Source: Escherichia coli | GTDB taxonomy: Bacteria > Pseudomonadota > Gammaproteobacteria > Enterobacterales > Enterobacteriaceae | Reading direction: 5' to 3' (one strand) | Assembly: GCF_003334785.1 (NCBI RefSeq) | Contig: NZ_QOWV01000002.1 | DNA: 64,000 bases | Part shown: positions 1 to 32,633 of the stretch, piece by piece | Numbering within the stretch: position 1 is the first letter of the stretch | Layout of the letters: each line of letters begins with the position of its first letter | Notes under the pieces: generated by a model | Databases searched by the model: none | Told to the model about the DNA's origin: nothing | What the model saw: only the letters and a program-made list of their open reading frames with translations | Translations under genes and position numbers: made by a program

Positions 1-2600
1 TCAACGTCGGTGCGAAGCTGGTCGTTCTCGGCGGCCCGGCAATGAACATCGGTCTTGGCGGTGGTGCAGCGTCTTCTATGGCGTCTGGTCAGTCTGATGC
101 CGACCTCGACTTTGCTTCCGTACAGCGCGACAACCCGGAGATGGAGCGTCGCTGCCAGGAAGTGATCGACCGTTGCTGGCAGCTTGGTGATGCCAACCCA
201 ATCCTGTTTATCCACGACGTTGGCGCTGGCGGTCTTTCTAACGCCATGCCGGAACTGGTGAGCGACGGCGGGCGCGGCGGTAAATTTGAACTGCGCGAGA
301 TTCTAAGCGACGAACCGGGCATGAGCCCGCTGGAAATCTGGTGTAACGAATCCCAGGAACGCTACGTGCTGGCGGTTGCTGCCGATCAATTACCGCTGTT
401 TGACGAACTGTGTAAGCGTGAGCGCGCACCCTACGCGGTGATTGGTGAAGCGACCGAAGAACTGCATCTTTCTCTGCACGATCGTCATTTTGATAATCAG
501 CCGATCGATCTGCCGCTGGACGTCCTGCTTGGTAAAACGCCGAAGATGACCCGCGATGTACAAACGCTGAAAGCGAAAGGCGACGCGCTGGCCCGTGAAG
601 GGATCACCATTGCAGACGCGGTGAAACGTGTGCTGCATCTGCCGACTGTGGCGGAAAAAACCTTCCTGGTGACCATTGGCGACCGCAGCGTAACCGGCAT
701 GGTAGCGCGCGATCAGATGGTGGGGCCGTGGCAGGTGCCGGTCGCTAACTGCGCGGTCACTACCGCCAGCCTCGACAGCTACTACGGTGAAGCGATGGCG
801 ATTGGCGAGCGTGCGCCGGTTGCGCTGCTGGATTTCGCCGCCTCTGCCCGTCTGGCGGTCGGTGAAGCGTTAACCAACATCGCCGCAACACAAATTGGCG
901 ATATCAAACGCATCAAACTTTCCGCCAACTGGATGGCGGCGGCAGGCCACCCTGGTGAAGATGCGGGCCTGTATGAAGCCGTTAAAGCCGTGGGCGAAGA
1001 GCTTTGTCCGGCGCTGGGCCTGACGATCCCGGTGGGTAAAGACTCCATGTCGATGAAAACCCGCTGGCAGGAAGGTAACGAAGAGCGCGAAATGACGTCG
1101 CCGCTGTCGCTGGTGATTTCTGCATTTGCCCGCGTGGAAGATGTACGTCACACCATCACGCCGCAGCTTTCTACCGAAGATAACGCACTGCTGCTGATTG
1201 ATTTGGGCAAAGGCAATAACGCGCTGGGCGCAACGGCGCTGGCGCAGGTTTATCGTCAGCTTGGCGACAAACCGGCAGATGTACGCGATGTCGCGCAACT
1301 GAAAGGCTTCTATGACGCGATTCAGGCGCTGGTTGCACAGCGTAAGCTGCTGGCGTATCACGACCGCTCTGATGGCGGCCTGCTGGTAACGCTGGCGGAA
1401 ATGGCCTTTGCTGGTCATTGTGGCATTGACGCGGATATCGCCACTCTGGGTGACGATCGCCTGGCGGCGTTGTTTAACGAAGAACTGGGTGCGGTGATTC
1501 AGGTTCGTGCCGCTGACCGTGAAGCGGTCGAGTCCGTACTGGCACTGCATGGGCTTGCTGATTGTGTCCATTATGTAGGGCAGGCGGTTTCCGGTGACCG
1601 TTTTGTGATTACCGCCAACGGGCAGACTGTATTCAGCGAAAGCCGCACCACGTTGCGTGTCTGGTGGGCAGAAACTACCTGGCAGATGCAGCGCCTGCGT
1701 GACAACCCGGAGTGTGCCGATCAGGAGCATCAGGCGAAATCTAACGACGCCGATCCGGGCCTGAATGTAAAACTGTCGTTCGATATCAACGAAGATGTGG
1801 CAGCACCGTATATTGCCACTGGCGCACGTCCGAAAGTTGCCGTACTGCGTGAGCAGGGCGTGAACTCGCATGTTGAAATGGCGGCAGCTTTCCACCGTGC
1901 AGGCTTTGATGCTATCGACGTGCATATGAGTGACCTGCTGACCGGACGCACGGGCCTGGAAGATTTCCACGCCCTGGTCGCGTGCGGTGGTTTCTCCTAC
2001 GGTGATGTGCTGGGTGCCGGTGAAGGTTGGGCGAAGTCAATCCTGTTCAATGACCGTGTACGCGATGAGTTTGCAACCTTCTTCCACCGTCCGCAAACGC
2101 TGGCGCTGGGGGTATGTAACGGTTGCCAGATGATGTCTAATCTGCGTGAACTGATCCCAGGTAGTGAGTTGTGGCCACGTTTTGTGCGCAATACCTCCGA
2201 TCGCTTTGAAGCGCGTTTCAGCCTGGTTGAAGTAACCCAAAGCCCGTCTCTGCTGTTGCAGGGGATGGTGGGCTCGCAAATGCCGATTGCTGTCTCTCAT
2301 GGTGAAGGGCGCGTGGAAGTGCGTGATGCGGCGCATCTGGCGGCACTGGAAAGCAAAGGGCTGGTGGCACTGCGCTATGTCGATAACTTCGGCAAAGTCA
2401 CTGAAACCTACCCGGCTAACCCGAACGGTTCACCGAACGGTATTACGGCAGTCACGACTGAAAGTGGTCGAGTCACCATTATGATGCCGCACCCGGAACG
2501 TGTTTTCCGTACTGTCAGCAACTCCTGGCATCCGGAAAACTGGGGCGAGGATGGCCCATGGATGCGCATTTTCCGCAATGCGCGTAAGCAGTTGGGGTAA
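1..2600 (+). CDS. purL: Phosphoribosylformylglycinamidine synthase, C-terminal ~852 aa (5' end lies upstream of the window)
   Basis: ORF 42..2600 translation recognised as the PurL glutamine amidotransferase/AIRS-like C-terminal region; reading frame stays open to the window edge. Confidence 0.95.
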
Positions 2601-2659
2601 GTCGTCAGCCCATTGGTTTTGCAGCCCGGATGCGGCATTAAGCACCAACCACTATCATA

Positions 2660-2684
2660 AGCTCCCAACTCCGGGAGCTTTTTT
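2660..2684 (+). terminator. Rho-independent terminator after purL
   Basis: Stem agctccc / gggagct with 6-nt loop followed by TTTTTT, 60 nt after the purL stop. Confidence 0.6.
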
Positions 2685-2685
2685 G

Positions 2686-2799
2686 TGTCTGTAAATCACG
2701 ACAATGGGTGGTTTGCCGTGTCGCTTTCTGGCGACACTTAACTCATTGATTTTAATATTATCTAATAAGTTTATCTTAAGTTGTCTCTTTTTAGCGACA
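2686..2799. promoter_or_regulatory. Three TGTC-N10-GACA sites (2686-2703, 2719-2736, 2782-2799) matching GlrR (NtrC-family) activator binding sites
   Basis: Three exact TGTC-N10-GACA inverted repeats read from the sequence, phased about 3 and 6 helical turns apart, 90-200 bp upstream of a sigma54-type promoter; matches the published glmY upstream architecture. Confidence 0.7.
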
Positions 2800-2888
2800 C
2801 AGTGGCTGATTTACATTCAAACAGCGGAGGAGACATAAACCCCTCAAAGCAACGTATAATCAGTACGTTACCAAACTATTTTCTTTAT

Positions 2889-2908
2889 TGGCACAGTTAC
2901 TGCATAAT
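2889..2908 (+). promoter_or_regulatory. sigma54 promoter (-24 TGGCAC, -12 cTGCA) overlapping a sigma70-like -10 (CATAAT)
   Basis: TGGCAC-N5-CTGCA at 2889-2904 with GG/GC spacing typical of RpoN promoters; CATAAT at 2903-2908. Confidence 0.7.
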
Positions 2909-2915
2909 AGTAACC

Positions 2916-3100
2916 AGTGGCTCATTCACCGACTTATGTCAGCCCCTTCGGGACGTGCTACATAAAATACGAATGACGCACAACAAGGTGCCTGCCGTCC
3001 AACTTCTGATATCAGCGTAGCTATATCAACCATCGGGCGAAACGTCGAGTTAGGCACCGCCTTATTCCATAACAAAGCCGGGTAATTCCCGGCTTTGTTG
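2916..3100 (+). ncRNA. glmY: GlmY small RNA (formerly tke1/sroF), regulator of glmS via GlmZ
   Basis: Location between purL and glrK; transcript predicted from sigma54 promoter to hairpin aaagccggg/cccggcttt (3075-3097) plus U-rich tail; about 185 nt, consistent with known GlmY; ends not mapped. Confidence 0.75.
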
Positions 3101-3157
3101 TATCTGAACTTCCCCTCGGTTAGCATCAGGCTATTCGCGTCTGACGAGAGTAACACC

Positions 3158-4585
3158 TTGAAACGCTGGCCCGTTTTTCCCCGCTCATTACGACAACTGG
3201 TAATGCTGGCATTTTTGCTGATTCTGCTGCCCCTGTTGGTGCTGGCATGGCAAGCCTGGCAAAGCCTGAATGCGCTTAGCGATCAGGCGGCGCTGGTTAA
3301 CCGCACTACGCTTATTGATGCCCGGCGCAGTGAAGCGATGACCAACGCGGCGCTGGAGATGGAGCGTAGTTACCGTCAGTATTGCGTGCTGGACGACCCA
3401 ACCCTGGCGAAGGTTTATCAAAGCCAGCGCAAGCGTTACAGCGAAATGCTCGATGCCCACGCAGGCGTGCTGCCGGACGATAAACTCTACCAGGCATTAC
3501 GTCAGGATTTGCACAATCTGGCTCAACTTCAGTGTAACAACAGCGGTCCCGATGCTGCCGCCGCCGCACGTCTTGAAGCCTTTGCCAGTGCCAATACCGA
3601 AATGGTACAGGCCACGCGCACAGTGGTGTTCTCTCGTGGGCAGCAGCTTCAGCGTGAAATCGCCGAACGTGGGCAATATTTTGGTTGGCAATCGCTGGTG
3701 CTATTTCTGGTGAGTCTGGTAATGGTACTGCTTTTCACGCGGATGATTATCGGGCCGGTGAAAAATATCGAGCGCATGATCAACCGTCTGGGGGAAGGGC
3801 GTTCTCTGGGCAATAGCGTCTCGTTCAATGGACCGAGCGAGTTACGCTCGGTTGGGCAACGTATTCTTTGGTTAAGTGAGCGCCTGTCATGGCTGGAATC
3901 CCAACGCCATCAATTTTTAAGACATTTATCTCATGAATTAAAAACGCCACTGGCGAGTATGCGCGAGGGCACTGAATTACTGGCTGACCAGGTTGTCGGG
4001 CCGCTTACGCCAGAGCAAAAAGAGGTGGTGAGCATTCTTGATAGCAGCAGCCGCAATTTGCAAAAACTGATCGAACAACTGCTTGATTACAACCGTAAAC
4101 AGGCGGACAGTGCGGTGGAACTGGAGAATGTTGAGTTAGCACCGCTGGTGGAGACAGTGGTTTCTGCTCATAGCCTGCCCGCACGGGCTAAAATGATGCA
4201 TACCGACGTCGATCTCAAAGCAACAGCTTGCCTGGCGGAGCCAATGCTGCTGATGAGCGTACTGGATAATCTTTACTCCAATGCGGTGCACTACGGGGCT
4301 GAATCCGGTAACATTTGCCTTCGCAGCAGTTTACATGGTGCGCGGGTTTATATTGATGTCATCAATACAGGCACGCCCATTCCGCAAGAGGAACGCGCCA
4401 TGATCTTCGAACCCTTTTTTCAGGGAAGCCACCAGCGAAAAGGGGCGGTGAAGGGCAGCGGTCTGGGATTAAGCATTGCCAGGGATTGTATTCGCCGTAT
4501 GCAAGGGGAACTGTATCTGGTCGACGAGAGCGGGCAAGACGTTTGTTTCCGCATTGAATTACCGTCGTCGAAAAACACGAAATAA
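3158..4585 (+). CDS. glrK: Sensor histidine kinase GlrK (two-component system GlrK/GlrR)
   Basis: ORF 3095..4585; HisKA/HATPase motifs (HELKTPL, GSGLGL); start set at in-frame TTG 3158 to give the 475 aa I recall; ATG 3095 is an alternative that would overlap the glmY terminator. Confidence 0.85.
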   Translation: MKRWPVFPRSLRQLVMLAFLLILLPLLVLAWQAWQSLNALSDQAALVNRTTLIDARRSEAMTNAALEMERSYRQYCVLDDPTLAKVYQSQRKRYSEMLDAHAGVLPDDKLYQALRQDLHNLAQLQCNNSGPDAAAAARLEAFASANTEMVQATRTVVFSRGQQLQREIAERGQYFGWQSLVLFLVSLVMVLLFTRMIIGPVKNIERMINRLGEGRSLGNSVSFNGPSELRSVGQRILWLSERLSWLESQRHQFLRHLSHELKTPLASMREGTELLADQVVGPLTPEQKEVVSILDSSSRNLQKLIEQLLDYNRKQADSAVELENVELAPLVETVVSAHSLPARAKMMHTDVDLKATACLAEPMLLMSVLDNLYSNAVHYGAESGNICLRSSLHGARVYIDVINTGTPIPQEERAMIFEPFFQGSHQRKGAVKGSGLGLSIARDCIRRMQGELYLVDESGQDVCFRIELPSSKNTK

Positions 4586-4749
4586 TGCTAACAGCCTATC
4601 CTATCAGGCTATTTTATTTGTCAGTTCGGCCCCGGGCAGTGCTCGAAATCTTCACGTACGATATGTACGCTCCGGTTTCTCCGCGCTGTCCATGTCCAGA
4701 CTGTCTGCAACAATTACGCCCACTGGGATAGGCTTTAAGTCTGGTGAAT

Positions 4750-5463
4750 ATGCGACACATTTTTCAACGATTATTGCCCCGACGGCTGTGGCTGGCAGGG
4801 CTGCCATGTCTGGCATTGCTGGGTTGCGTGCAGAATCACAATAAGCCAGCCATTGATACGCCAGCAGAAGAAAAAATTCCGGTTTATCAACTGGCTGACT
4901 ATCTTTCTACTGAATGTAGCGACATCTGGGCGCTGCAAGGTAAATCAACCGAAACCAATCCGCTTTACTGGCTGCGGGCGATGGATTGTGCTGATCGTTT
5001 AATGCCTGCGCAGTCGCGTCAGCAAGCTCGCCAATATGACGACGGCAGCTGGCAAAATACCTTTAAACAAGGGATTTTGCTCGCCGACGCCAAAATTACG
5101 CCGTATGAGCGCCGCCAGCTGGTCGCGCGTATTGAAGCGTTAAGTACCGAGATCCCGGCACAGGTTCGCCCACTGTATCAACTCTGGCGCGATGGTCAGG
5201 CGCTGCAACTGCAACTGGCGGAAGAGCGCCAACGTTACAGTAAACTCCAGCAGTCCAGCGACAGCGAGCTGGATACATTGCGCCAGCAACATCACGTTCT
5301 ACAGCAGCAACTGGAACTCACCACCCGCAAGCTGGAAAACCTGACCGATATTGAACGCCAGCTCTCGACCCGCAAACCGGCTGGAAATTTCTCGCCGGAT
5401 ACGCCGCACGAGAGTGAAAAGCCCGCGCCATCCACCCATGAGGTCACTCCTGATGAGCCATAA
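4750..5463 (+). CDS. qseG: Outer-membrane lipoprotein QseG (YfhG)
   Basis: ORF 4744..5463; signal peptide with lipobox LLGC, Gln-rich coiled-coil C-terminus; sits between glrK and glrR; start trimmed to second ATG. Confidence 0.85.
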   Translation: MRHIFQRLLPRRLWLAGLPCLALLGCVQNHNKPAIDTPAEEKIPVYQLADYLSTECSDIWALQGKSTETNPLYWLRAMDCADRLMPAQSRQQARQYDDGSWQNTFKQGILLADAKITPYERRQLVARIEALSTEIPAQVRPLYQLWRDGQALQLQLAEERQRYSKLQQSSDSELDTLRQQHHVLQQQLELTTRKLENLTDIERQLSTRKPAGNFSPDTPHESEKPAPSTHEVTPDEP

Positions 5464-6787
5464 ACCTGCGCATTTATTATTGGTCGATGACGATCCGGGA
5501 TTGCTGAAACTGCTTGGCCTGCGCCTGACCAGCGAAGGCTACAGTGTGGTCACGGCGGAAAGTGGCGCTGAAGGATTACGGGTACTGAATCGCGAAAAAG
5601 TAGATTTAGTCATCAGCGACCTGCGGATGGATGAAATGGACGGTATGCAGCTGTTTGCTGAAATCCAGAAAGTGCAGCCGGGAATGCCGGTAATTATTCT
5701 TACCGCGCATGGTTCTATTCCCGATGCCGTTGCTGCAACACAGCAGGGCGTTTTTAGTTTCCTCACCAAGCCTGTCGACAAAGACGCGCTATATCAGGCA
5801 ATTGACGATGCGCTGGAGCAATCCGCGCCAGCCACCGATGAACGCTGGCGCGAGGCAATTGTCACCCGCAGCCCGCTGATGCTGCGTTTGCTGGAACAGG
5901 CGCGGCTGGTGGCGCAATCAGACGTCAGCGTTTTGATTAACGGTCAGAGCGGCACCGGGAAAGAGATTTTCGCCCAGGCTATCCACAACGCCAGCCCGCG
6001 CAACAGCAAACCATTTATTGCTATTAACTGTGGCGCATTGCCCGAGCAATTGCTGGAGTCGGAGCTGTTTGGTCATGCGCGTGGCGCGTTTACTGGCGCT
6101 GTCAGCAATCGCGAAGGTTTATTCCAGGCGGCGGAAGGCGGAACGCTATTTCTCGATGAAATTGGCGATATGCCTGCGCCGTTACAGGTCAAACTGCTGC
6201 GCGTGTTGCAGGAGCGTAAAGTGCGCCCGCTGGGCAGTAACCGCGATATTGATATCAATGTGCGGATTATTTCTGCCACTCACCGTGATCTGCCAAAAGC
6301 GATGGCGCGCGGGGAATTCCGCGAAGATCTCTATTACCGCCTCAACGTTGTCAGCCTGAAAATTCCGGCACTGGCGGAGCGCACAGAAGACATTCCGCTA
6401 CTGGCAAATCACCTGTTGCGCCAGGCGGCAGAGCGACATAAACCGTTTGTCCGCGCGTTCTCTACCGATGCGATGAAACGCCTGATGACCGCGAGCTGGC
6501 CGGGTAATGTGCGCCAGTTGGTCAACGTGATTGAACAGTGCGTGGCGCTGACCTCATCTCCGGTGATTAGTGATGCGCTGGTGGAGCAGGCGCTGGAGGG
6601 TGAAAATACGGCGCTGCCAACCTTTGTTGAGGCACGTAATCAGTTTGAACTCAACTATTTGCGTAAGCTGCTGCAAATCACCAAAGGCAACGTCACCCAC
6701 GCGGCGAGAATGGCGGGGCGCAACCGGACAGAATTTTATAAACTGCTTTCCCGACACGAGCTGGATGCAAACGATTTCAAGGAATGA
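5453..6787 (+). CDS. glrR: sigma54-dependent response regulator GlrR (YfhA)
   Basis: ORF 5351..6787; receiver domain, AAA+ sigma54-interaction motifs (GESGTGKE, GAFTGA) and C-terminal HTH; start at ATG 5453 (444 aa) overlapping the qseG stop by 11 nt. Confidence 0.9.
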
Positions 6788-6811: not shown

Positions 6812-7186
<375 letters not shown>

Positions 7187-10002: not shown

Positions 10003-10041
10003 GCGAAACGGTGATTTGCTGTCAATGTGCTCGTTGTTCAT

Positions 10042-10139
10042 GCCGGATGCGGCGTGAACGCCTTATCCGGCCTACAAAACTTTGCAAATTCAATATATTG
10101 CAATCTCCGTGTAGGCCTGATAAGCGTAGCGCATCAGGC
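10042..10139. repeat. REP pair (inverted REP units) downstream of glyA
   Basis: gccggatgcggcgtgaacgccttatccggcctac and inverted gtaggcctgataagcgtagcgcatcaggc, the canonical E. coli REP family. Confidence 0.85.
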
Positions 10140-10199
10140 AATTTTTCGTTTATGATCATCAAGGCTTCCTTCGGGAAGCCTTTCTACGTTATCGCGCCA

Positions 10200-30932: not shown

Positions 30933-31673
30933 ATGCTGCAAAATATTCGAATTGTGCTGGTGGAGACGTCACACACCGGCAATATGGGTTCTGTTGCCCG
31001 TGCCATGAAAACAATGGGATTAACCAATCTGTGGCTGGTTAATCCACTGGTGAAACCCGACTCCCAGGCGATTGCCCTGGCAGCAGGGGCCAGCGATGTG
31101 ATTGGTAATGCTCACATCGTCGATACGCTCGACGAAGCGTTAGCCGGTTGTAGCCTGGTGGTGGGCACCAGCGCACGTTCCCGCACGCTGCCATGGCCGA
31201 TGCTCGACCCGCGCGAATGCGGCCTGAAAAGCGTCGCTGAAGCGGCAAATACCCCGGTGGCGCTGGTGTTTGGTCGCGAGCGCGTCGGCTTGACCAATGA
31301 AGAGTTGCAGAAATGCCATTATCATGTCGCGATTGCGGCTAACCCGGAATACAGCTCGCTGAACCTGGCGATGGCGGTTCAGGTTATTGCCTATGAAGTG
31401 CGCATGGCCTGGCTGGCAACTCAGGAAAACGGCGAGCAGGTCGAGCATGAAGAGACGCCGTATCCGCTGGTCGATGATCTGGAGCGTTTTTATGGTCATC
31501 TGGAACAAACGCTGCTGGCAACCGGTTTTATCCGTGAAAACCATCCGGGGCAGGTGATGAATAAATTGCGCCGTCTGTTTACCCGTGCGCGCCCGGAAAG
31601 CCAGGAGTTGAATATCCTGCGCGGGATTCTGGCTTCTATTGAGCAGCAGAATAAAGGTAACAAGGCCGAATAA
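30933..31673 (+). CDS. trmJ: tRNA (cytidine/uridine-2'-O)-methyltransferase (SpoU family)
   Basis: 246-aa ORF; divergent from suhB. Confidence 0.93.
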
Positions 31674-31674
31674 C

Positions 31675-31857
<183 letters not shown>

Positions 31858-32522: not shown

Positions 32523-32633
32523 TAAAAAGAATTCAGAATCAGGCCGGAGTGCTAAATACTCCGTAAACACGGTCGTACATCCAGCCGGTAGCCTGATTCC
32601 TTGCATTGAGTGATGTACGGAGTTTATAGAGCA

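Follow-up and report, generated by a model that had tools for sequence, protein, structure and literature searches.

The glmY small RNA locus of Escherichia coli: a very probable enhancer-dependent sigma-54 promoter with a separately transcribed qseEGF

Classical sigma-54 promoters at which looping is assisted by IHF include glnAp2, activated by NtrC, and nifH, activated by NifA. Like these, the glmY promoter has activator sites lying over 100 bp upstream, a bend made by IHF, a -24 GG and a -12 GC element, and an AAA+ response regulator as its activator; unlike them, it yields a small RNA instead of an mRNA and is perfectly overlapped by a sigma-70 promoter. The architecture of glmY was established by Reichenbach, Göpel and Görke (2009, Mol Microbiol 74:1054), as that study is represented in two later papers (PMC3045617, PMC6075780), and was summarised and extended by Göpel et al. 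(2011, NAR; PMC3045617). GlrR was found bound more than 100 bp upstream of glmY at three TGTC-N10-GACA motifs, with gel-shift and mutational data behind the assignment; the sigma-54 promoter cannot do without ABS2 and ABS3 but does not need ABS1 (PMC3045617). ABS3 is flanked by two IHF-like regions to which binding has been demonstrated, and both IHF and the distal IHF site are essential for sigma-54 activity (PMC3045617). The hexamer CATAAT is the characterised sigma-70 -10 element of glmY, tested by -10 mutagenesis, and residual sigma-70 expression persists without rpoN (PMC3045617). A sigma-54 ChIP-seq study by Bonocora et al. (2015) assigned the motif TTGGCACAGTTACTGCA to E. coli glmY (PMC4591121). 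The RNA has been described as a 184 nt and a 148 nt form, together with its stem-loop structure (PMC2377431). According to PMC4152352 and PMC7073468, GlmY is a decoy for RapZ that stabilises GlmZ and raises glmS expression, and the K-12 sequence in those sources is identical to the one studied here. The two-component system downstream of glmY has been reported as "transcribed independently" (Göpel et al. 2011, PMC3045617), and a sigma-70 promoter belonging to qseEGF lies immediately 3' of glmY (Göpel and Görke 2018, PMC6075780).

The stretch of DNA considered here, called the window, is 64 kb of E. coli sequence. Its positions 2600-3200 (601 bases) match E. coli K-12 MG1655 with 100% identity; the K-12 glmY promoter and gene show no difference from the locus in the window, and the ChIP-seq motif is identical to window positions 2888-2904. 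The preliminary description, made from the sequence, recognised the organisation as that known for glmY and called for a comparison with the known promoter; the comparison agrees with it, and the layout is the one published for E. coli (PMC3045617, PMC4591121). There is very little doubt that the locus is E. coli glmY with an enhancer-dependent sigma-54 promoter activated by GlrR and IHF, and with qseEGF transcribed separately. Published K-12 experiments on the GlmY 5' end (2916 in the window), on mutation of ABS2 or ABS3, and on deletion of rpoN or glrR in combination with a mutated CATAAT all agree with this reading. The feature is real and has already been published in detail, and no new element is added to it here. 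What the present analysis itself shows is that the elements are there and are unique in the window, that the RNA matches its family and folds as expected, which proteins are encoded, and that the layout is conserved in E. coli and Dickeya. Published experiments are the source for the binding of GlrR and IHF, for the dependence on the sigma factors, for the start sites, and for read-through being absent. Coordinates are collected in Table 1.

Table 1. Features of the glmY locus and its neighbours, in window coordinates
Feature	Position	Strand	Relative to glmY start	Basis and details
purL 3' part (phosphoribosylformylglycinamidine synthase)	1-2600	+		RefSeq annotation of the matching K-12 record; ORF 42-2600
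purL intrinsic terminator	2659-2685	+		terminator scan; 8-bp stem and T-run
GlrR/QseF ABS1 TGTCTGTAAATCACGACA	2686-2703	.	-230 to -213	exact pattern match
GlrR/QseF ABS2 TGTCGCTTTCTGGCGACA	2719-2736	.	-197 to -180	exact pattern match
distal IHF consensus WATCARNNNNTTR	2739-2751	-		exact match; between ABS2 and ABS3
GlrR/QseF ABS3 TGTCTCTTTTTAGCGACA	2782-2799	.	-134 to -117	exact pattern match
proximal IHF consensus WATCARNNNNTTR	2858-2870	+		exact match; between ABS3 and promoter
sigma-54 promoter TTGGCACAGTTACTGCA	2888-2904	+		GG 2890-2891, GC 2902-2903
sigma-70 -10 hexamer CATAAT	2903-2908	+		sequence; overlaps the -12 element
glmY primary transcript	2916-3099	+		~184 nt
glmY intrinsic terminator hairpin	3069-3101	+		14-bp stem, 5-nt loop, interrupted U-run
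qseEGF sigma-70 promoter (hexamers putative)	3098-3133	+		start site ~3133, 25 bp upstream of start codon
glrK/qseE sensor histidine kinase	3158-4585	+		475 aa, TTG start; RefSeq annotation, histidine-kinase family matches
qseG (yfhG) lipoprotein	4750-5463	+		NF007997, 360 bits, above cut-off; annotation
glrR/qseF sigma-54-dependent response regulator	5453-6787	+		NF011695 equivalog, 982 bits (cut-off 763); annotation
glnB (PII)	6848-7186	+		NF008111, 243 bits, above cut-off; annotation

The exact pattern TGTC-N10-GACA occurs three times in the window, against a mean of 1.01 per window in shuffled sequence, and all three occurrences are at glmY, where the preliminary description had placed them. 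They lie within 114 bp, and the shuffle rate predicts only ~1.6e-6 such triplets. The centre-to-centre distances are 33 and 63 bp, which at 10.5 bp per helical turn correspond to 3.14 and 6.0 turns; because of these spacings, the description of the sites as helically phased is fair, being exact for sites 2 and 3 and approximate for sites 1 and 2. The range of 90-230 bp that had been given for their distance upstream of the promoter mixes two reference points: site 3 does end 90 bp before TGGCAC, but 230 bp is the distance from the start of site 1 to +1. The T-run of the purL terminator (2681-2685) runs straight into GlrR site 1, and therefore the glmY enhancer starts right where the purL transcription unit ends. 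The IHF consensus has an exact match on each side of ABS3, and the distal one is probably IHF site 1 of PMC3045617, an equation made here. When up to one mismatch to WATCARNNNNTTR is allowed, the consensus is commoner over the whole window than in shuffles (123 versus 77 ± 9 matches), which is probably an effect of composition or codon use.

The sigma-54 promoter is unique in the window: TGGCAC-N5-CTGCA has a single match in the 64 kb (2889-2904; 0.11 expected). The -24 GG and the -12 GC are 12 bp apart, and the GC lies 13-14 bp upstream of +1 at 2916. With this spacing, activator sites upstream, and an IHF site between enhancer and promoter, the locus has the composition of an enhancer-dependent sigma-54 promoter. 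The sigma-70-like -10 element that the preliminary description saw overlapping it is also present. A generic sigma-70 consensus scan flagged no promoter at glmY at a threshold of at least 4/6 matches in each hexamer, so the overlapping sigma-70 promoter is established by the published mutagenesis rather than by the strength of its sequence.

The RNA that follows matches the Rfam family GlmY (RF00128, clan CL00011) over 2916-3063 with 146 bits, where the gathering score is 33, and the match spans model positions 1-163 of 163. It folds with -66.7 kcal/mol (z = -5.7) into a pair of large, imperfect stem-loops as well as a 3' terminator stem-loop, and the sequence GAGTGAGGCACCGCC lies in its 3' domain. 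The full-length match, the expected fold, and the position between purL and glrK-yfhG-glrR place it in the GlmY family. The terminator folds by itself with -23.4 kcal/mol (z = -8.6), and its U-run is broken by G residues. The generic promoter and terminator scan missed this terminator while finding that of purL, but folding shows the hairpin clearly. From the 5' end at 2916 and the end of the hairpin, the primary transcript is therefore ~184-186 nt long, in agreement with the ~185-nt RNA with a strong terminal hairpin that had been proposed. The processed and abundant form of ~148 nt corresponds to 2916-3063, and the 184-nt form to 2916-3099.

The elements and the published experiments together give a pathway. 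Phosphorylated GlrR (QseF), encoded three genes downstream, binds its enhancer sites, which extend from 230 to 117 bp before the transcription start; IHF bends the intervening DNA at the two sites flanking ABS3, and the bound activator, through ATP hydrolysis, opens the sigma-54 holoenzyme complex at TGGCAC-N5-CTGCA. The weak sigma-70 promoter, with CATAAT over the -12 element, starts at the same nucleotide and gives basal glmY expression. The 184-nt GlmY, ending at the strong intrinsic terminator, is processed to ~148 nt and acts as a decoy for RapZ, so that GlmZ is protected and glmS activated. The genes glrK-qseG-glrR are served by their own weak sigma-70 promoter just past the glmY terminator, with no autoregulation. 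The locus thereby ties an envelope-associated two-component system to the control of GlmS, and hence to the synthesis of cell-envelope precursors; in pathogens, the two-component system linked to glmY is also tied to virulence.

The region 2600-3200 was matched over at least 80% of the query in all 5426 of the 5426 complete E. coli genomes searched. In E. coli JCM 20135, which is 96.7% identical over the region, the substitutions in ABS1 and ABS2 are confined to the N10 spacers (positions 2691, 2728, and 2732), leaving both half-sites (TGTC and GACA) and the -24/-12 elements as they are in the window. One of the 5426 genomes, that of EPSSH018 (NZ_CP125889.1), carries an IS1A (4441-5208 of locus L055) in the loop of the glmY terminator, splitting the stem. 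The insertion point corresponds to window positions 3081-3089, with a 9-bp target duplication, GGTAATTCC, and the element stands between glmY and the qseE promoter.

Downstream of glmY, the preliminary description expected glrK-qseG-glrR, with the last gene encoding the activator of the upstream sites, and this is borne out by the annotation and by the NF011695 score of GlrR. After glnB the RefSeq annotation has hmpA on the opposite strand. The start of glrK was considered at two positions: TTG 3095, which gives the longest ORF and overlaps the terminator, was rejected in favour of the annotated TTG 3158, from which the protein begins MKRWP and aligns with the start of Dickeya GlrK. A glrK start region abutting the glmY terminator, as had been proposed, does not hold, since the annotated start is 57 nt past the terminator. 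The start site of qseEGF has been placed 25 bp upstream of qseE (PMC6075780). From this position and the sequence, the -10 element of the qseE promoter may be TAGCAT (3121-3126) and the -35 element TTGTAT (3098-3103). The putative -35 overlaps the terminator tail; thus the terminator would be abutted by the qseE promoter and not by coding sequence of glrK.

If nevertheless GlrR-activated glmY transcripts read through the terminator into glrK-qseG-glrR, the two-component system would be under positive autoregulation, and the preliminary description suggested such a coupling. The genes are neighbours on one strand, only those 57 nt separate terminator and glrK, and the U-run is interrupted; in Proteus mirabilis, moreover, a glmY-qseE-qseG-qseF co-transcript was detected by RT-PCR, and qseE showed no promoter activity of its own (PMC8745638). 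Against this, K-12 qseE'-lacZ fusions that included the whole glmY locus gave virtually the same activity as those with nothing but the qseE promoter, in exponential as well as stationary phase, and deletion of qseF or qseG left both kinds of fusion unaffected (PMC6075780). Overproduction of QseF-D56E, QseG, or QseE strongly induces glmY, but chromosomal QseG-3xFLAG was unchanged under the same overproduction (PMC6075780). Earlier semi-quantitative RT-PCR, in the form in which PMC6075780 quotes it, had also indicated that read-through "does virtually not occur." The stability of the terminator hairpin argues in the same direction. In Dickeya the gap between terminator and glrK is ~200 nt rather than 57 nt; therefore the tight spacing stressed by the preliminary description is not conserved. 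Coupling by read-through has thus been tested in K-12 by fusions, RT-PCR, and QseG levels, and rejected (PMC6075780); the published experiments largely refute it for that strain, and as an account of the locus it is very unlikely.

The Proteus mirabilis locus resembles the present one in gene order, in predicted QseF and IHF sites, and in an overlapping sigma-54/sigma-70 promoter (PMC8745638). Co-transcription from the glmY promoter has been reported only there, whereas K-12 has a separate qseE promoter (PMC8745638, PMC6075780), and the coupling is therefore one found in a relative and not in the organism of the window. Because K-12 shows a separate promoter and virtually no read-through, the locus is not classed as a single glmY-qseEGF operon. 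There is a slim chance that read-through matters in natural isolates or under other conditions, for example in EPSSH018 or where termination is modulated; it would then give a conditional positive feedback, as reported in Proteus.

A second way in which the two transcription units could interact is by occlusion, with heavy transcription and termination of glmY covering the qseE promoter and lowering synthesis of the kinase and the regulator. This would be in keeping with a qseE -35 element (~3098-3103) inside the 3' arm and tail of the terminator, but the assignment of that hexamer was made in this study, the fusions gave the same values with or without glmY upstream and with or without QseF, and QseG levels did not change on full activation (PMC6075780). 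Occlusion is accordingly extremely improbable, and separate transcription of qseEGF from its own promoter is retained.

Outside E. coli, a contig scan with the pattern TGGCAC-N6-TGC-N{8,14}-GCTCATTCA gave 53 matches, nearly all of them chance matches in unrelated phyla; the only true glmY loci among them are those of Dickeya oryzae (L009), D. undicola (L020), and Thorsellia anophelis (L030). The scan missed E. coli-type loci because its gap of 8-14 nt is shorter than the 16 nt of E. coli (2904-2919), and its low yield carries no information on conservation. In the two Dickeya species GlmY scores 113-121 bits, the gene order is purL-glmY-glrK-qseG-glrR-glnB, and the promoter is TGGCAC-N5-GTGCA. 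Each carries three exact TGTC-N10-GACA sites whose starts are 32 and 63 bp apart, where E. coli has 33 and 63 bp. More variable is the interval between ABS3 and the promoter, at 134-145 bp in Dickeya and 107 bp in the E. coli window, which would agree with a loop made by bending instead of a fixed contact geometry. Thorsellia has glmY-glrK-qseG-glrR, then glnB. For glmY and glmZ of Yersinia pseudotuberculosis and Salmonella, a sigma-54 promoter accompanied by three GlrR sites and by IHF-like sites has been described (PMC3045617). Unlike E. coli glmY, Yersinia is without the overlapping sigma-70 promoter, and at E. coli glmZ the sigma-54 arrangement has been lost altogether (PMC3045617). That the palindromes and the sigma-54 motif arose by chance, glmY being a plain sigma-70 transcript, would suit the CATAAT -10 and the published expression without rpoN (PMC3045617), but practically no weight can be given to it and it was rejected, given the low expectation for a triplet within 114 bp, the half-sites that stay invariant in a divergent E. 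coli strain while the spacers vary, the site number and spacing kept in Dickeya, the sigma-54 ChIP-seq occupancy at the glmY motif (PMC4591121), and the published gel-shift and mutational data that confirm function (PMC3045617).

Several other features of the window were recorded. Compared with the MG1655 record NZ_CP032667.1, the window has ~20 substitutions and a difference of one 91-bp REP unit, none of them in the glmY region. The 91-bp units, of REP/BIME type, lie at 31673-31857 between trmJ and iscR, where they overlap an Rfam naRNA4 match (31735-31806); the window has one fewer near 31.7-31.9 kb than NZ_CP032667.1, and the two do not otherwise differ in length over the 64 kb. The sseB-sseA intergenic region contains two copies of a ~195-bp repeat (40294-40484 and 40616-40809; 82.7% identical) that coincide with the Rfam elements ryfA (40007-40310) and IS128 (40442-40650) and with the small toxin gene timP (40130-40255, minus strand). 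A repeat of ~105 bp, 90.6% identical between its copies, is found downstream of glyA (10040-10144) and of pepB (39097-39199), and is probably another REP-type intergenic element. Known RNA elements are present where expected, at 32523-32632 (the iscRS stability element, between iscR and iscS) and at 53479-53570 (sroE, between ispG and hisS).
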